Below, piece after piece: positions 3,398 through 51,185 of a DNA stretch of 64,000 bases. The notes under the pieces are model-generated. The model was given only the letters and a program-made list of their open reading frames with translations, was not told the DNA's origin and did no database searches. Positions within the stretch are counted from its first letter, which is position 1. Each line of letters starts with the position of its first letter. The stretch covers positions 2,504-66,503 of the forward strand of contig CAYWQH010000005.1 in NCBI GenBank assembly GCA_964460855.1, in the 5' to 3' direction. Both the position numbers and the translations under genes were made by a program. The DNA comes from an uncultured Candidatus Saccharibacteria bacterium (GTDB taxonomy: Bacteria; Patescibacteriota; Saccharimonadia; Saccharimonadales; UBA10212).

Positions 3398-4453
3398 TTA
3401 CTGACACAGTTCGTGGCAGTATTTAGCAACGGCCGCTTCGTGTTCGGCCTGGGTATGCGTAAAGTGGGTAACGCCGTCGTCGCCCGATACAAAGAACAAA
3501 TAGTCGGTGTTGGCCGGGTTGGCCACGGCTTCTAAAGAAGTGCTGGATATAGTGCCGATCGGGCCCGGCGGCAAGCCTTTGGCCGTATGGGTGTTGTACG
3601 GTGAATCGACCGTTAAGCTGCCCGGTTTGCCGGCCAGCACGCCGGCATAATAAGCCGTTACGTCCGAACCCAGCGGAATCCCCTGGCGCAGCCGGCTCAA
3701 AAATACCTGGGCGACAATCGGCCGGTCATTTATATTGGCTACTTCTTGTTCGACGATAGATGCCAAAGTTACGCACTGGTATATCGATAGCTTCTGGTTG
3801 GCGCAGCCAGCTTTAATATCGGGAGTCAGGTGTTTGTTCATTTCGGCCAGCGAAGCAGTAACTATCGTACTAAGCGGCGTGTCGTCGGCCTTGTCGTACG
3901 AATCGGGGTATAAAAAGCCTTCTAGCGTAGCCGTTTTGGGCAAATAAATCAGCGCCGGGCTGTTGGGGTAATTGGCCGGTTTGAGGGCTTCGTTTATTTG
4001 CTGCTGGCTAAAGCCGGCTTCTAGGAACTGCTTGTTGAGCTGGTCCGGCAGCCGCTTGCCGGGCAAAATGGTAAATAAATTGCGGGCTATGTCACCTTTA
4101 ACCATCTTATCTACTATCTCCTTGGTGCTCATGGCCGGGTCTAAAGTATAGGTACCCGCTATTAGTTTATCGCGGACTTCCTGGTCGCGGATGTACCACT
4201 CAAATGCTTTGGAACTGCGGATAAGTTTGGCGTTTTGTAAATTTTTGCCAATTTGCTTGGCGCTGGTGCCTTTTTCGACGGTGAAATATACGATTTTAGT
4301 GCTGTCGCTTACCGGCTGTAGGCTGTTTTCGTACTGGTGGCGGATAAACCAGGTAATTAACAAAAATGCCGCGCCCACCCCCACTAGGATAATGACGCCC
4401 ATGCTTAGTAACGGCCTTCGCCGTGAAGGCCGGCGGTTGAACCGGTATTTCAT
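3398..4453 (-). CDS. mltG: Endolytic murein transglycosylase MltG (YceG family)
   Basis: N-terminal TM; LASIVEQE, SDVTAYY, YNTH..GLPPGPI motifs. I chose the start at 4453 (MKYRFNRR) because it gives an ATGA overlap with the ruvX stop. The ORF track allows a start at 4471. Confidence 0.85.
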   Translation of the reverse strand: MKYRFNRRPSRRRPLLSMGVIILVGVGAAFLLITWFIRHQYENSLQPVSDSTKIVYFTVEKGTSAKQIGKNLQNAKLIRSSKAFEWYIRDQEVRDKLIAGTYTLDPAMSTKEIVDKMVKGDIARNLFTILPGKRLPDQLNKQFLEAGFSQQQINEALKPANYPNSPALIYLPKTATLEGFLYPDSYDKADDTPLSTIVTASLAEMNKHLTPDIKAGCANQKLSIYQCVTLASIVEQEVANINDRPIVAQVFLSRLRQGIPLGSDVTAYYAGVLAGKPGSLTVDSPYNTHTAKGLPPGPIGTISSTSLEAVANPANTDYLFFVSGDDGVTHFTHTQAEHEAAVAKYCHELCQ

Positions 4454-4860
4454 AAACGATAATCTTCCCATTTTGCCGGGTCCAGGCTTAAAAAATCACC
4501 CAAAATTATGGCCGCCGCTTCGGCGTCCGGCCCGGCGGCTGAGCGCGGCTGCTGCTCGGCCAATTGGGTGGTAGCGGCTTCGTCCTGCCAGTAAAGCGGA
4601 ACGTTTACGGATTGTTTGAAAGCCTCAGCCCACTGGCGGACCCAAGCCGTTTGGCCGGTGTCCTGGCCCTGTAAGTTGCGGGGCAAGCCAATAACAATGG
4701 CGCTGGCCGAGTGGTCTTTAACTAACTGGCCGGCTATTGCCGGGAGTTGGCTGGTCGGTATAGTGCTGAGCGGTTCGGGAATTTTAGCGACGGTGCTAGC
4801 CCGGGCTAGCCCGGTGCGCTGCTGGCCTACATCCAGTGCCAGTAGCTGCTTAGCCTCCAC
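4450..4860 (-). CDS. ruvX: YqgF/RuvX-type putative pre-16S rRNA nuclease / Holliday junction resolvase-like
   Basis: 136 aa. LALDVGQQRTGLA and IVIGLPRNLQGQDT motifs. Confidence 0.85.
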   Translation of the reverse strand: MEAKQLLALDVGQQRTGLARASTVAKIPEPLSTIPTSQLPAIAGQLVKDHSASAIVIGLPRNLQGQDTGQTAWVRQWAEAFKQSVNVPLYWQDEAATTQLAEQQPRSAAGPDAEAAAIILGDFLSLDPAKWEDYRL

Positions 4861-7953: not shown

Positions 7954-7982
7954 TTGACACCTTAATTTCCTTAAGGTAATAT
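7954..7982 (+). promoter_or_regulatory. sigma70-like promoter of cassette 2a with a spacer palindrome
   Basis: TTGACA (7954-7959), 17 bp, TAATAT (7977-7982). The spacer is the palindrome accttaa-tttcc-ttaaggt (7959-7977). Confidence 0.5.
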
Positions 7983-8014
7983 TTAGCGATTCGTTCCCGA
8001 CACAAGGAGGAGCA

Positions 8015-8263
8015 GTGCTCGCCGATACCAGTTTGGCGTTCCGTACCTACCGGATCTATGGCGAGATCCGGGCGGACGGCACCCACATCGGCACGATGTC
8101 CGCCTGCAACGGCTTGCATCACGCGCTCTGCCGAACGGAGCAGACGTGGCGCGATGGCCAGATCATCGGCGCTACGCCACTCGGCCTCGAGATTCTCGGT
8201 GGGTGCGATGGCAACTGCGCCGACGGCCTCACCCAGAATGGTGGCATCCGCTTCGCGCTGTGA
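8015..8263 (+). CDS. Small GC-rich ORF (82 aa), unknown function (cassette 2a)
   Basis: AAGGAGG at 8004-8010, GTG start at 8015. 68 of 82 third positions are G/C by hand count, clearly more than in the other frames. No family recognised. Confidence 0.55.
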   Translation: MLADTSLAFRTYRIYGEIRADGTHIGTMSACNGLHHALCRTEQTWRDGQIIGATPLGLEILGGCDGNCADGLTQNGGIRFAL

Positions 8264-8271
8264 CGAACGAC

Positions 8272-8295
8272 GGCCCCCGGCGAAAGCTGGGGGCC
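8272..8295 (+). terminator. GC hairpin after the cassette 2a ORF
   Basis: ggcccccggc-GAAA-gctgggggcc: 10-bp stem (one G-U pair) with a GNRA loop. No U-tract follows. Confidence 0.4.
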
Positions 8296-8332: not shown

Positions 8333-8361
8333 TTGACATTATTAAGCTTAAGCTGTATAAT
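8333..8361 (+). promoter_or_regulatory. sigma70 consensus promoter of cassette 2b
   Basis: TTGACA (8333-8338), 17 bp, TATAAT (8356-8361). The spacer contains the perfect 10-bp palindrome ttaagcttaa (8342-8351). Confidence 0.55.
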
Positions 8362-8484
8362 ATACCAGTTCAATCAAGAGGTTGGACGTACCTTAAGGCA
8401 AGAGAGTACCTCAGGCGTTCATTATTCAGTAAAGCGTTTTACTGCGTTATGAACGTCTGAAAACAACCGATCGAAAGGAAGATC

Positions 8485-22105: not shown

Positions 22106-23095
22106 TTGGTGGTAATGGAAGAAGATAAAAAAGACAAAGGCCCGTCGGTTGATGACAATTTAAACGGCACGCTGGACGGCGACACGTCGGCCGAAACAGC
22201 CGCCCAAATCGACAAAGACGACAAGGCCCTCAAACCCAAGAAAGCAGGCGGCCCGATTGGAATAATAAAGCGGCTGGCTAGCCATTTGAATATCTATATG
22301 CTGCTGTTTATTTTTATCTTAATCGTAGCCGGCGGCATTACTTACGTGGCCCAGCAAAGCAGCAAAAAAGCCGCCGACCAGCAAAAAGCCCAGGACAAGC
22401 TAAGCGCCGACCAGTTAAGCGCCCTGCAAAACAGCTCGACTAAAATTGGCGACCCCAAGCAAGTTTTAAACATAGAAAGCAGCACGATTTTTAGCGGCAA
22501 AGTATTGGTTAAAGACAGCCTGGACGTGGCCGGCACCATCCACGTCGGCGGCGCGTTGGCTTTGCCGGGCATTACGGTTAGCGGCACCAGCAGTTTCGAC
22601 ACTATAGTGGCAAACAGCTTAAATGTTACTGGTAATACGAGTGTCCAAGGGTCGCTGACAGTTCAAAAAGGCTTGAACGTGAGCGGCCCAGTGACCTTTG
22701 GCGGGCCAATTTCGGCGCCGCAAATTAATATCGAAAACCTGCAGGTAACCAAGGATTTGCTAATAAACAGCCATATAAATCCAACTGGCGTTACACCCGG
22801 CAAGGCAGACGGTGGCGCACTGGGAGCCGGCGGTACGGCCTCGGTTAACGGCAGCGACACGGCCGGGACGGTTACTATTAACACTGGCGCCGGAGCACCT
22901 TCCGGTTGTTTTGTGACAGTTAATTTCAGCCAGCACTTCGGCAGCACGCCGCATGTTGTAATTTCACCCGTAGGCCTGGGCGCCGCCAGCTTGCAGTACT
23001 ACGTTAACCGCACCAACGTGAACTTCTCGATCTGCACGGCTAACGCCCCGCCCTCGCAAACAACCTTTTTCTTCGACTATATTGCTCTAGACTAG
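22106..23095 (+). CDS. Hypothetical membrane-anchored protein with beta-helix-like repeats
   Basis: 329 aa. One TM (IYMLLFIFILIVAGGITYV), then short repeats of the type V.G..SV.GSLTV.KGLNVSG. Confidence 0.5.
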   Translation: MVVMEEDKKDKGPSVDDNLNGTLDGDTSAETAAQIDKDDKALKPKKAGGPIGIIKRLASHLNIYMLLFIFILIVAGGITYVAQQSSKKAADQQKAQDKLSADQLSALQNSSTKIGDPKQVLNIESSTIFSGKVLVKDSLDVAGTIHVGGALALPGITVSGTSSFDTIVANSLNVTGNTSVQGSLTVQKGLNVSGPVTFGGPISAPQINIENLQVTKDLLINSHINPTGVTPGKADGGALGAGGTASVNGSDTAGTVTINTGAGAPSGCFVTVNFSQHFGSTPHVVISPVGLGAASLQYYVNRTNVNFSICTANAPPSQTTFFFDYIALD

Positions 23096-23123
23096 CGCTC
23101 GCCATAAATTTTCAGCGACATTC

Positions 23124-23260
23124 GCAAACGATATTGAATTTTGACTAGCCAGGTGCCGCGCCGAAAAAATCCCTAAAGAGTCTTCTTCGCATTATTTAAG
23201 ATTGCTCAGAAGAGATTTTCGGCTTTACTCGGCAATATAAGTCAAAATTCATCTGTTTGC
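23124..23260. repeat. Long imperfect nested palindrome downstream of 22106..23095
   Basis: Nested arms: gcaaac/gtttgc (23124-23129 / 23255-23260), gaattttgact/agtcaaaattc (23136-23146 / 23240-23250), gccgaaaa/ttttcggc (23160-23167 / 23216-23223), tcttct/agaaga inside. Confidence 0.5.
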
Positions 23261-23359
23261 TCGAGCCGCTTCGAATCTTAGGGCTCGCTTTACTAAAGAA
23301 GGGTGGCTCACGTCCGGTGGGAAATCGGCGGTTCGCATTGCTCAACCACTGATATAGCA

Positions 23360-23388
23360 TTGCTATATTCTTTTAATTATTGTATTAT
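23360..23388 (+). promoter_or_regulatory. sigma70-like promoter of cassette C
   Basis: TTGCTA (23360-23365), 17 bp, TATTAT (23383-23388). Confidence 0.5.
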
Positions 23389-23422
23389 ATGTTATTCGGC
23401 AGTACCGAAACCCCTGGAGGGA

Positions 23423-23731
23423 ATGGTGGGTACGAATTCGAACGGAAAGACTTTGCAGGAACTGAACACTGAGTACCTGCGCTGGGAAAAGATCCGCAAG
23501 TACGGCATTATCGTACACGCGATAACTGTGTGGTCCTTCATCACGATCATCTTCATTCTGGGCGCCGCGCTGCATGTGGTGAACGCCAACGGCTTCCTCC
23601 ATTCGCCCATCATGAACTTCTATGTAGTGGTGGCGCTCGGGAGCCTGGCGATGGTACTCGTGGCGAATCACAGGAGACTCGACGTCAAGAAGAAGTTCGA
23701 GAGCCGCCGCGGAAGGATCACCAGTGTGTGA
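23423..23731 (+). CDS. Small 2-TM membrane protein (102 aa), unknown function (cassette C)
   Basis: SD ctggaggg, ATG at 23423. MVGTNSNGKTLQELNTEYLRWEKIRKYG, then helices IIVHAITVWSFITIIFILGAAL and FYVVVALGSLAMVLVA, then a basic tail. GC3-rich. Confidence 0.6.
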   Translation: MVGTNSNGKTLQELNTEYLRWEKIRKYGIIVHAITVWSFITIIFILGAALHVVNANGFLHSPIMNFYVVVALGSLAMVLVANHRRLDVKKKFESRRGRITSV

Positions 23732-23745
23732 AGCTGGCCGCGCTA

Positions 23746-23774
23746 GGGTGAGGGCGAACATGCGGCCCTCACCC
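23746..23774 (+). terminator. GC hairpin after the cassette C ORF
   Basis: gggtgagggc (23746-23755) / gccctcaccc (23765-23774): perfect 10-bp stem. Confidence 0.5.
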
Positions 23775-23803
23775 GCCCACCGGTACTGCCGAATTTTTAT
23801 AAT

Positions 23804-24073
23804 TTACACGTCTAGAAAAACTATAACTTTATCCGCTTTAACGTGCATGACGCCGCGGGTAATTTTGAGCTTGAAGTCGTCGGCCCCGTGCTTGCGTACC
23901 ACAACTTCGCCGGGGTTTAGCAAAGTCATAAAGTTTTTATGGTGCGGCAGTATGTCGAACGGGCCGGTATCGTTAACGGCGCTGATACTGTTGGCATCAT
24001 CGTCGAAATAATTTTTAAACGGCGAATAGATTTTAATCCTTACTGTATCTGTAATGGCAAACTTGTCGGCCAT
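23804..24073 (-). CDS. atpC: F1 ATP synthase subunit epsilon (short, beta-sandwich only)
   Basis: 89 aa, last gene of the atp operon. GPFDILPHHKNFMTLL pattern. Lacks the C-terminal helical hairpin. Confidence 0.75.
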   Translation of the reverse strand: MADKFAITDTVRIKIYSPFKNYFDDDANSISAVNDTGPFDILPHHKNFMTLLNPGEVVVRKHGADDFKLKITRGVMHVKADKVIVFLDV

Positions 24074-24075
24074 GG

Positions 24076-26236
<2,161 letters not shown>

Positions 26237-36514: not shown

Positions 36515-36918
36515 TTGGGAGGAAGTTTTTCGGGCGGGGGCCAGGCAATCGCTAAATCGCCCGGCCCCGTTGCCCATCCGCTACTGGCAGTGCACCGGCG
36601 TGACGTGCCAGCCGATGTCATCCAGGATGGCGTTGACATTGAGCACGTCGCCAAACAGGTCACGGACGTACTCCACGAACCTGTCGGCCTTGAAGTATTC
36701 GATTCCGCTGTGCTCTTTGTGGCCGTGGCCGTAGTCGAGCACATGGTATGCGACTTGCTCCAGGATCTGGTAAAGCTCCTGGTTGTCGCAGACCAGCTCG
36801 AGCTCTTGGCGGATGCCGCGAGCGGCATCGGTCCTGCCGAGCTTGACGGCGTCTTCCAGTTTGACGCCTAGCGTCACGGCTTGTTGTTGGTCACAAACCA
36901 TCAAGGGCTTCCTCCCAA
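36515..36918. repeat. 11-bp perfect inverted repeat bracketing cassette D1; the 3-prime arm is an anti-SD
   Basis: ttgggaggaag (36515-36525) and cttcctcccaa (36908-36918). On the minus-strand mRNA the 5-prime arm UUGGGAGGAAG contains the SD. The 3-prime arm lies just after the hairpin at 36537-36568. Confidence 0.75.
36581..36901 (-). CDS. Small acidic GC-rich ORF (106 aa), unknown function (cassette D1)
   Basis: GGGAGGA SD, ATG at 36899-36901. MVCDQQQAVTLGVKLEDAVKLGRTDAARGIRQELELV... No family recognised. Confidence 0.55.
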   Translation of the reverse strand: MVCDQQQAVTLGVKLEDAVKLGRTDAARGIRQELELVCDNQELYQILEQVAYHVLDYGHGHKEHSGIEYFKADRFVEYVRDLFGDVLNVNAILDDIGWHVTPVHCQ

Positions 36919-37245: not shown

Positions 37246-37678
37246 TCCGCAAGTACCCGGGCTGCCAGCGGCGCGGTCGTCCATGACCGCGCCGCCAGTT
37301 GGCAGTTCAGCGAGCAGCTGTGAAGGGCACGAGCGTCTCGGGCTGCGACAGCGCGAGTAGCAGGTAGTACGGGTTCACGCCGTCTTCGTACTGGTCCTTG
37401 ATGGACTGCAGCTCGTCGAGCTCGCGGCACGCCTGCGGGTAGCGGTGCATGTCGTCGGTAACGACGTGCACGTGCGGCGACTCAGCGGCCGTCTTGGTGA
37501 ACATCGCGAACTGGTCGATCTCCCGCCGCGTGGCGGTGATCTGGTCTTCCAGCCTCGACACGAAGTCCTCGCGAGCGAAATTTCCGGTTCGCGGGTCCTC
37601 AGCATCGAGCAGGTCAGCCAGCTGCTGATGCGCGTCCTGCGTCACTGGTTCTCCTTCTGTTCGAGGGGTACTTGCGGA
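37246..37678. repeat. 13-bp perfect inverted repeat bracketing cassette D2
   Basis: tccgcaagtaccc (37246-37258) and gggtacttgcgga (37666-37678) are exact reverse complements. The 5-prime arm lies about 10 nt upstream of the SD on the minus-strand mRNA. Confidence 0.8.
37307..37645 (-). CDS. Small acidic GC-rich ORF (112 aa), unknown function (cassette D2)
   Basis: GAAGGAGA SD, GTG start at 37643-37645. MTQDAHQQLADLLDAEDPRTGNFAREDF... Followed by an 11-bp GC hairpin (37268-37295). Confidence 0.55.
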   Translation of the reverse strand: MTQDAHQQLADLLDAEDPRTGNFAREDFVSRLEDQITATRREIDQFAMFTKTAAESPHVHVVTDDMHRYPQACRELDELQSIKDQYEDGVNPYYLLLALSQPETLVPFTAAR

Positions 37679-37728
37679 GTACCGGTAGCAAACTCCCCTT
37701 GCTGGGGAGTGCGACCATGTTGCAAATT

Positions 37729-37756
37729 ACTATATCATACTAATGTTTTATGTCAA
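37729..37756 (-). promoter_or_regulatory. sigma70-like promoter of cassette D2
   Basis: Minus strand: TTGACA (37751-37756), 16 bp, TATAGT (37729-37734). Confidence 0.5.
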
Positions 37757-50783: not shown

Positions 50784-51185
50784 TGGTGGAGCTGGCGAGT
50801 TTGAGCCCGCGTCCGCTTGGTAACTTCTCCGATGCCTACAGGTTTATACCGTTTAGGTGTTTCTTTGCCGAACAAACGGTGAACGGTCAAAAGCAAGTCC
50901 AGCGCAGTCCTAAAGTCTTATCCGACTAGAACGGACCGTTCCAGTACGGGGCAACCAAATAAATATGGCACCAGCGAAAGCCTATTTGGCGTCAGCGTGC
51001 TGATGGCAGCTTAAATAATTAAGCTACAGCTGCGGCTTGGCGCCCGGCGAGAACAGAGTTCACGCTAGCAACAAAGTCGCTAACTTTGGTTTTGGCAATT
51101 AAAGCCTGTGCACCAGCTAACGTGTAGTGCAAACCGACCTGCCATGCGGAGATGTTAAGGTCCAACCGTCAAATTAGTCAGCCCC
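50784..51185 (-). ncRNA. ssrA: tmRNA (SsrA)
   Basis: 5-prime GGGGCUGA. 3-prime GGACGCGGGCUCAAACUCGCCAGCUCCACCA (T-arm plus acceptor with the G3-U pair). Internal tag frame 51019..51096: GCC resume codon to UAA, AKTKVSDFVASVNSVLAGRQAAAVA. Confidence 0.9.

Follow-up and report, generated by a model that had tools for sequence, protein, structure and literature searches.

In a 64,000-nt stretch of DNA from an uncultured Candidatus Saccharibacteria bacterium (contig CAYWQH010000005.1; hereafter the window), a short gene unit, which we call cassette C, lies between a surface-protein-like gene and the 3' end of the atp operon. Cassette C is predicted to be a self-contained transcription unit comprising a promoter, a Shine-Dalgarno (SD) sequence, an orphan open reading frame (ORF) of 102 aa and a GC-rich hairpin, and the two ends of its predicted transcript carry the halves of a perfect 14-bp complementary pair (the 5' and 3' arms). 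The explanation that we favor, and to which we give an even chance of being correct, is that modelled pairing between the arms closes the mRNA by a clamp joining its 5' untranslated region (UTR) to its 3' UTR. Comparable arm pairs were found in three further cassettes of the window, referred to as C8k, C36k and C37k.

The ends of the predicted cassette C transcript are complementary

An exact sequence search located the 5' arm and, 373 nt away, a 3' arm that is its exact reverse complement (14/14 positions; Table 1). No further copies of either arm with fewer than three mismatches were found in the window. The initial annotation, made from the sequence alone, had described these perfect arms and had placed the left one at the start predicted from TATTAT and the right one between a 10-bp GC hairpin and TTTTT; each of these points was confirmed. 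Five nt separate the promoter-like site from the 5' arm, and the start predicted from that site (∼23394-23396) coincides with the beginning of the arm. The 5' arm is also located upstream of the SD sequence, as previously noted, although the spacing measures 9 nt rather than 8 nt. At the other end, the GC hairpin is positioned 6 nt upstream of the 3' arm and lacks a directly adjoining T-run on either strand. The atpC stop codon (23804-23806, minus strand) is found just past the T-run that follows the arm. A scan of 22900-24300 detected no canonical intrinsic terminator (0 sites), the local GC hairpin being 20 nt from the T-run, and of the structures in cassette C only the clamp, with its 373-nt loop, abuts the T-run. 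The transcript so delimited would be ∼405 nt long. An Rfam 15 covariance-model search of 22900-24200 gave 0 matches at E ≤1.

The predicted fold of the segment 23394-23800 is closed by 13 bp formed by the arms and by a second helix of 7 bp (including one G.U pair) between GGUGGGU and GCCCACC (positions in Table 1). All 20 nt at 23775-23794 are paired in this fold, the SD sequence and the AU of the start codon are found in an 18-nt bulge, and the GGG of the SD sequence is paired with CCC at 23411-23413. In all four cassettes, the arms are part of the minimum free energy (MFE) structure with a pair probability of ∼1. The closed-stem mRNA suggested in the initial annotation is thus upheld by modelling, and it gains strength from the three sibling cassettes and from a predicted hammerhead ribozyme in C8k, both described below.

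We also calculated how the 3' end of the transcript affects its stability and how accessible its ribosome-binding site (RBS) is. The last 20 nt (23775-23794) lower the MFE from -144.4 to -169.3 kcal/mol. In their presence, the cost of opening the RBS rises from 5.6 to 10.9 kcal/mol for positions 23415-23428, and from 5.6 to 11.5 kcal/mol when the region -12 to +5 is considered; the latter value goes from 12 to 20 kcal/mol in C36k. In shorter, nascent transcripts of cassette C, the leader folds locally by pairing of the 5' arm with 23429-23442, and the opening cost is 5.5-7.6 kcal/mol. The 5' arm together with the following AA (23408-23409) is, in addition, able to form a local 5-bp hairpin (UUCGG/CCGAA). 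The full transcript has a z-score of -4.83, compared with -0.3 to -1.3 when the arms and hairpin are removed and with a background of -0.72 ± 0.98, indicating that the signal comes from the clamp and hairpin and not from the coding region. An unusually structured coding region was accordingly rejected, since the values obtained after removal lie inside the coding-window background.

Arm pairs next to GC hairpins are overrepresented in the window

Taken alone, the cassette C repeat is weak evidence: of 200 dinucleotide-shuffled windows, 16.5% contain a perfect inverted repeat ≥14 nt long whose arms are 20-600 nt apart. The association with hairpins was assessed using the 15 strong GC hairpins of the window in both orientations (30 tests); in each test, the region 150-1100 nt upstream was searched for the longest segment exactly complementary to the 32 nt behind the hairpin. 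Three of the 30 tests reach 13-14 nt (8393/9086, 23394/23781 and 37678/37258), and the other 27 give 11 nt or less. By our own estimate, which assumes uniform base composition, three matches of at least 13 nt in 30 tests would arise by chance with a probability of ∼1e-7. When the same hairpin scan was applied to 920 kb of related Saccharibacteria loci, 0/121 tests gave a match of at least 12 nt.

The converse scan identified 33 perfect inverted repeats in the window that are ≥11 nt long and whose arms are 150-1300 nt apart. Only four of them have a hairpin of -24 kcal/mol or stronger no more than 48 nt inside one arm, the fourth being 36918/36525 (11 nt). Cassette C also came first when the 5' and 3' regions of 1042 ORFs were compared with RNAduplex (-43.5 kcal/mol versus -40.4 kcal/mol for the next best); this ranking permits unrealistic loops, and we rely on the exact-match tests instead.

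Sibling cassettes and a candidate hammerhead ribozyme

Judged by their sequences, C8k, C36k and C37k share the layout of cassette C: a leader arm, an SD sequence, an orphan ORF, a GC hairpin, a C-rich linker and a complementary 3' arm (Table 1). The linker between hairpin and 3' arm is C-rich and 3-11 nt long in all four cassettes. In three of the four, the arms are located at or near the SD sequence, and in C8k 79 nt separate the 5' arm from the AUG. A hexamer, AGTACC, is present in all four leaders (at 8405, 23401, 36964->36959 and 37672->37667), and in three of them it is found at the inner edge of the 5' arm. We estimate the chance of any hexamer being common to four leaders at ∼1.5e-4. 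Otherwise, the arm sequences differ between cassettes. Since the device recurs in unrelated cassettes with different arms, it is seemingly the pairing of the RNA ends that is conserved and not the sequence of the arms, and their diversity would argue against a single protein-recognised DNA site. Extension of the pairing by G.U pairs (U23431.G23775 and U8407.G9085) is possible in the sense RNA only.

The cassette ORFs have a GC content at third codon positions (GC3) of 0.79-0.86 (the value for C8k ORF2 excluded), compared with 0.55-0.65 for the long genes of this genome. Their products are mutually unrelated, and all are singletons in a collection of 15 billion proteins. The C37k and C36k proteins are acidic and soluble.

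A candidate type III hammerhead ribozyme was detected by local search directly after the C8k 3' arm, with a score below the Rfam gathering score (38.8 versus 48.5 bits). The core reads CUGAcGAG...CGAAA, stem I is formed by ACAAA/UUUGU, and cleavage is predicted at UC/U after C9108, 9 nt past the 3' arm. As a ribozyme needs transcription to work, the C8k 3' arm would be present in RNA and the GC hairpin would not be a complete terminator. The mature 3' end of C8k is thus predicted to lie 9 nt past the 3' arm, where ribozyme cleavage would set it. The window contains one hammerhead core pattern with a valid fold, and none was found in cassette C.

Table 1. Predicted elements of cassette C and of the three sibling cassettes. 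Positions are those of the window; arrows mark minus-strand features. TM, transmembrane segment.
Feature	Position	Strand	Details
Cassette C, promoter-like site TTGCTA-17 nt-TATTAT	23360-23388	+	sigma-70-like scan, 9/12 matches; TATTAT at 23383-23388
Cassette C, 5' arm ATTCGGCAGTACCG	23394-23407	+	exact sequence search
Cassette C, SD sequence GGAGGG	23417-23422	+	9 nt beyond 5' arm
Cassette C, ORF (102 aa + stop)	23423-23731	+	orphan two-TM protein
Cassette C, second helix, 5' strand GGUGGGU	23425-23431	+	last base of AUG and codons 2-3; partner 23775-23781
Cassette C, 10-bp GC hairpin GGGTGAGGGC/GCCCTCACCC	23746-23755 and 23765-23774	+	9-nt loop
Cassette C, C-rich linker GCCCACC	23775-23781	+	between hairpin and 3' arm; 3' strand of second helix
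Cassette C, 3' arm CGGTACTGCCGAAT	23781-23794	+	exact reverse complement of ATTCGGCAGTACCG
Cassette C, T-run TTTTT	23794-23798	+	first T is last base of 3' arm
C8k	8333-9099	+	promoter TTGACA-17-TATAAT at 8333-8361, 12/12 matches
C8k, 5' arm TTAAGGCAAGAGAG	8393-8406	+	14 nt; 3' arm at 9086-9099
C8k, ORFs	8485-8730 (81 aa) and 8760-9044 (94 aa)	+	both two-TM
C8k, GC hairpin	9053-9080	+	followed by linker tcccg
C8k, type III hammerhead ribozyme (predicted)	9101-9155	+	38.8 bits, E 1.6e-6 (local search); directly after 3' arm
C36k	36515-36918	-	
C36k, 5' arm TTGGGAGGAAG	36918->36908	-	11 nt; SD sequence inside arm
C36k, ORF	36901->36581	-	106 aa, acidic
C36k, GC hairpin	36568->36537	-	10 bp, one G.U; linker cgcccgaaaaa
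C36k, 3' arm CTTCCTCCCAA	36525->36515	-	complement of SD-containing arm
C37k	37246-37756	-	promoter TTGACA-16-TATAGT at 37756-37729; TG immediately before second hexamer
C37k, 5' arm TCCGCAAGTACCC	37678->37666	-	13 nt; 3' arm at 37258->37246
C37k, SD sequence AAGGAG		-	9 nt past 5' arm
C37k, ORF	37645->37307	-	112 aa, acidic
C37k, GC hairpin	37305->37262	-	long; linker CCC

Several other elements were noted in the window. The 5' UTR of C8k contains a long hairpin (8411-8460, plus strand; 23-nt arms, 83% complementary) between the 5' arm and the SD sequence. On the plus strand, at 7954-8295 and 1613-2030, there are two GC-rich mini-cassettes that possess a GC hairpin, a strong promoter and a strong SD sequence (AAGGAGG) but no perfect arm pair; the first has an 82-aa ORF (8015-8263) and a hairpin at 8272-8295, the second a 38-aa ORF (1761-1877) and a hairpin at 1974-2002, with a canonical terminator after it at 2014-2033. 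A candidate small RNA of ∼130 nt is found between C37k and C36k (37186->37020, minus strand), with TTGACC-17-TATAAA as promoter-like site and, at 37050-37022, a canonical terminator that has a U-run behind it; the segment 37126->37116 of this RNA is complementary at 10 of 11 positions to the C36k leader (36933->36923). Two matches between cassettes were also seen: 11 nt of the C37k arm (TCCGCAAGTAC) reappear at 23493-23503 within the cassette C ORF, and the cassette C arm reappears with 12/13 identity (TCGGCAGGACCGA) at 36840->36828 in the C36k coding region. Such matches could reflect pairing in trans between cassettes, or chance.

A 5'/3'-UTR clamp as the preferred explanation

Computation shows that the arms are complementary and that such pairs recur and are enriched, and it likewise yields the predicted folds, the ribozyme and the insertion seen against other genomes. 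We infer where the transcript begins and ends, how it folds in vivo, how decay and translation are affected and what the protein does. In the mechanism we propose for cassette C, the nascent leader would fold locally, with UUCGG/UCGAA and GUACC/GGUAC pairs enclosing the RBS. Once transcribed, the last 20 nt would form 13-14 bp with the extreme 5' end and another 7 bp with the start-codon region, leaving the SD sequence and the AU in the 18-nt bulge and raising the RBS opening cost to ∼11 kcal/mol. Both RNA ends would then be hidden within the helix, and the outcome would be a long-lived, weakly translated mRNA.

Several observations weigh against this explanation. Promoter-like and terminator-like matches are no commoner across the window than expected by chance, and the ends of the cassette C transcript are predictions. 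In C8k and C37k, the clamp forms without a rise in RBS opening cost, so that RBS occlusion is not a function shared by the four cassettes. All four arm pairs are perfect Watson-Crick matches with abrupt ends, as would be found in DNA recombination sites or very young repeats. Moreover, the clamp model does not account for the GC hairpin found right before every 3' arm. Lastly, no relatives of cassette C were found in metagenome or viral contigs, and the Logan contigs are 100% identical across it, which makes a covariation test impossible.

The four occurrences lead us to a wider proposal, put forward tentatively and with the expectation that it may well be wrong: the genome would carry an undescribed class of autonomous, 'clamped' mini-gene cassettes. 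In each member, an orphan ORF of high GC3 might be served by a strong promoter and an SD sequence of its own, the leader might contain AGTACC, and a perfect 5'/3' helix of 11-14 bp, located right behind a GC hairpin, might close the mRNA, whose 3' end could conceivably be set either by a T-run or by a hammerhead ribozyme. If such a class exists, it could represent a dedicated means of storing, insulating or conditionally unlocking the mRNAs of genes that are recent acquisitions or newly born, or else a new kind of mobile or invertible cassette.

The cassette C protein and its genomic context

The 102-aa protein has hydrophobic segments at about residues 27-52 and 62-80 and a C-terminal tail with eight K/R and two D/E residues. 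The two TMs and basic tail of the initial annotation are therefore retained, whereas the N-terminus, which had been called amphipathic, is so to a modest degree only. At codon positions 1, 2 and 3, the ORF has a GC content of 0.49/0.35/0.79. Among the six frames it ranks first in codon score, yet this score is at the low end of the range for this genome (0.03 versus 0.34 ± 0.11 bits per codon). The low score together with the GC3 of 0.79 suggests that the gene may be foreign or young. Searches of Pfam and NCBIfam with the protein gave only matches below the curated cut-offs, and those of PHROGs and PADLOC gave none. In a word-indexed search of 5.8 billion clusters the protein retrieved itself alone, and a full HMMER scan of 1.84 billion representatives returned the protein itself and one 1297-aa protein. 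The latter, with 13 short matching stretches, was judged a spurious hydrophobic match and rejected as a homologue.

Cassette C is flanked by a conserved surface-protein-like gene (329 aa, upstream) and by atpC, in agreement with its previously described position at the 3' end of the atp operon; the genome is that of a Saccharibacterium, with a best atpD match of 84%. Across 59 relatives, the homologue of the 329-aa gene converges with atpC, and in most of them the two genes abut or overlap (the gap is <110 nt in 40/59, and overlap is frequent). Here the gap is 708 nt. No DNA similar to it was found in 80 related loci, so cassette C appears to be lineage-specific extra DNA. About 298 nt of this DNA, the promoter included, are located outside the left arm. 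Where other genomes have a large spacer at this junction, its content is unrelated.

This atpC/surface-protein junction is variable in other Saccharibacteria. It contains three copies of a palindromic 35-nt unit in one locus (L017, 7792-8336), a 149-aa membrane protein in another (L008, 7635-8084) and a 192-aa ORF in a third (L061, 7409-7987). The 35-nt 'repeat' was rejected as an analogue of the clamp, as it consists of three copies of a self-palindromic hairpin. In the window itself, an imperfect long hairpin of 117 nt (23135-23251) lies between the stop codon of the upstream gene and the cassette C promoter; it has a 12-bp outer stem (TGAATTTTGACT/AGTCAAAATTCA) and z-scores of -3.7 and -3.6 on the two strands, and could be a 3' structure of the upstream gene. 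One Logan contig (L001) agrees with the window at every position as far as ∼24200 and then shows 124 differences in ∼440 nt of atpD (4350-4786, corresponding to window positions 24200-24637); it is probably an assembly chimera with another Saccharibacterium. A tmRNA gene was identified elsewhere in the window (50784-51185, minus strand; Rfam 78.9 bits, E 6e-29).

Alternative explanations

The foremost alternative, which we regard as doubtful, is that the arms act in DNA, as inverted repeats that serve as crossover sites for a recombinase. Inversion would flip the ORF and hairpin relative to an external promoter, thus acting as a gene-flip switch. The perfect arm pairs with abrupt ends are what this explanation would predict, and the promoter lies outside the repeat in the three cassettes that have a predicted promoter. 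The hairpin is located just inside the far arm in 4/4 cassettes, and flipping would place it right behind the promoter. Two arms can be read as half-site/spacer/half-site arrangements (TTCGG-CAGTA-CCGAA, 23395-23409; GGTAC-TCCGCAA-GTACC, 37683->37667), AGTACC is common to the leaders, and cassette C is extra DNA compared with the 59 relatives. Furthermore, the C8k arm, at its distance from the AUG, hardly alters RBS opening, and RBS accessibility is likewise unchanged in C37k. On the other hand, the arms differ among cassettes, and that of C36k is merely an SD sequence and its complement. Logan contigs covering the cassettes, assembled independently from five runs, have the orientation of the window in 9/9 cases, bearing in mind that assemblies show the majority state only. 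No recombinase was recognized among the 10 window proteins tested, and searches with GCAAGTACC and GGCAGTACC, made to see whether the arms share a motif that a recombinase could use, revealed no additional sites that were clearly paired. The hammerhead after the C8k arm, moreover, points to a role in RNA.

Alternatively, the arms could be terminal repeats left by a mechanism of cassette insertion. The lack of a target-site duplication at 23393/23795 and the lineage-specific DNA outside the left arm weigh against any such DNA-level origin. Two particular forms were rejected. For a miniature inverted-repeat transposable element or other mobile insertion cassette, the arms differ among the four cassettes, and there is neither a target-site duplication nor another copy of the arms. 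For an integron gene cassette, attC core sites (RYYYAAC...GTTRRRY) would be expected 3' of the ORF, but no GTT is present in 23732-23803; such cassettes are also usually promoterless and arrayed, whereas cassette C possesses a promoter-like site and stands alone between housekeeping genes.

A different function in RNA was proposed in the initial annotation, in which the 3' side of the stem doubled as a long-range terminator. Here the arm helix and the U5 tract that follows it would make up the intrinsic terminator of the cassette C transcript. The position of the T-run, which begins at the last base of the 13-14-bp helix, fits this proposal, as do the distance of the GC hairpin from the T-run and the lack of a canonical terminator. 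However, a T-run follows the 3' arm in only one of the four cassettes, the base of the helix is A-U rich, and the 3' end of C8k is attributed to predicted ribozyme cleavage. The T-run may also simply be part of the AT-rich spacer that precedes atpC. A loop of 373 nt would have to close during a polymerase pause, a kinetically demanding event for which we know of no documented case. A terminator function is therefore not common to the four cassettes; for the cassette C helix it is speculative, and we consider it improbable.

The protein had also been likened to membrane toxins and holins. On a related reading, cassette C would be a hok-like type I toxin-antitoxin system, in which the mRNA of a two-TM membrane toxin is kept inert by folding back, is activated by 3' trimming and is controlled by an antisense RNA. 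The small hydrophobic product with its basic tail and the ∼405-nt predicted transcript would suit such a system, and the modelled end-to-end pairing, together with the local partner of the 5' arm in nascent RNA, mirrors the tac/fbi interaction and the metastable hairpin of hok (PMC9841398). With 102 aa and two TMs, however, the protein exceeds the typical size of type I toxins (usually <60 aa with one TM). It matches neither Hok/Gef nor another toxin family above threshold, no homologue is detectable, and the cassette is present as a single copy in the window. Antisense transcription, which the initial annotation had raised, finds no counterpart in a prediction scan of 22900-24300, where the minus strand has no sigma-70-like site. 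Nothing terminator-like follows atpC on that strand, so an antisense RNA produced by read-through is possible. In addition, the clamp is not specific to toxins, since it also accompanies two sibling ORFs whose products are acidic and soluble. A class II holin was rejected: the two-TM topology fits, but there is no PHROG match, and the neighbors are atpC and the surface-protein-like gene, with no lysin nearby. The toxin or holin assignment thus comes down to topology, and we see little likelihood of a hok-like system.

The least satisfactory explanation is a chance inverted repeat without function, which the frequency of such repeats in shuffled windows would allow but which is very unlikely in view of the exact placement of the arms (with a -10 element and SD sequence on one side and a hairpin and T-run on the other), the same geometry in three more cassettes, the absence of matches in 920 kb of related loci and the resulting enrichment of the class.

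Comparison with known systems

To our knowledge, documented bacterial 5'/3'-UTR interactions are few, namely those of hok, aapA, icaR and hbs. On paper, cassette C works like hbs, icaR and hok, although the lack of homology, of an antitoxin and of a fitting size places it outside the hok family. The closest parallel in dimensions is the hbs mRNA of Bacillus subtilis (∼380 nt), with a 14-bp 5'/3'-UTR interaction (Braun, Durand and Condon 2017, PMC5737220); the lengths of helix and transcript are nearly identical to those of cassette C. In contrast to cassette C, which is an orphan with a predicted pairing, hbs is a conserved housekeeping gene for which pairing was proven experimentally. Cassette C differs further in that its 5' arm is positioned at the predicted +1, that a second, 7-bp helix reaches the start codon and that the device is found in four cassettes.

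In the icaR mRNA of Staphylococcus aureus, a segment of the 3' UTR pairs with the RBS region, blocks initiation and creates a substrate for RNase III (Ruiz de los Mozos et al. 2013, PMC3868564). C36k, in which CUUCCUCCCAA is placed against the SD sequence, is the closest analogue, whereas in cassette C the modelled pairing would raise the RBS opening cost indirectly. The icaR interaction relies on UCCCCUG, a short motif within a long 3' UTR, compared with 11-14 perfect base pairs directly after a GC hairpin in the cassettes described here. With hok/sok (tac/fbi; PMC9841398) and aapA of Helicobacter pylori, cassette C has in common the pairing of the extreme 5' and 3' ends, an mRNA of ∼400 nt encoding a small membrane protein, an alternative local partner in the nascent RNA and a full-length form that is predicted to be translationally quiet. 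It differs from them in that the protein is twice as long and has two TMs, shows no Hok homology and has no antisense antitoxin that we could find, and in that sibling clamps flank genes for non-membrane proteins.

Two further systems also invite comparison. Phage 'morons' are autonomous promoter-ORF-terminator units of deviant composition, and cassette C is similarly a self-contained unit, with a GC3 of 0.79 versus 0.55-0.65, inserted between conserved genes. Cassette C, however, belongs to a bacterial chromosome and has no phage surroundings, and complementarity of the 5' and 3' ends is not a defining trait of morons. Invertons consist of short perfect inverted repeats a few hundred base pairs apart beside a promoter. 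In cassette C, by contrast, the repeat encloses the gene but not the promoter, the repeat sequence varies from locus to locus, no second orientation was seen in assembled contigs, and no invertase was identified among the 10 window proteins tested. Should the arms nevertheless be inversion sites, they would constitute a new gene-flip switch in Patescibacteria.

Bacterial hammerhead ribozymes are known to occur between genes (Perreault et al. 2011, PMC3088659). C8k resembles these cases in having a complete predicted type III hammerhead at its 3' end; cassette C has none. We know of no description of a hammerhead combined with a 5'/3' clamp, nor of a clamp that recurs around four unrelated orphan genes, fixed after a GC hairpin, in one small genome. 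Four occurrences in 64 kb, with unrelated arms and orphan genes, provide a built-in comparative test of the pairing. Confirmation of the clamp would mean that an ultrasmall episymbiont routinely uses end-to-end mRNA closure for its lineage-specific genes, would assign a concrete biological role to a bacterial hammerhead and would supply a sequence signature (hairpin, C-rich linker and complement of the leader) with which such genes can be found elsewhere.

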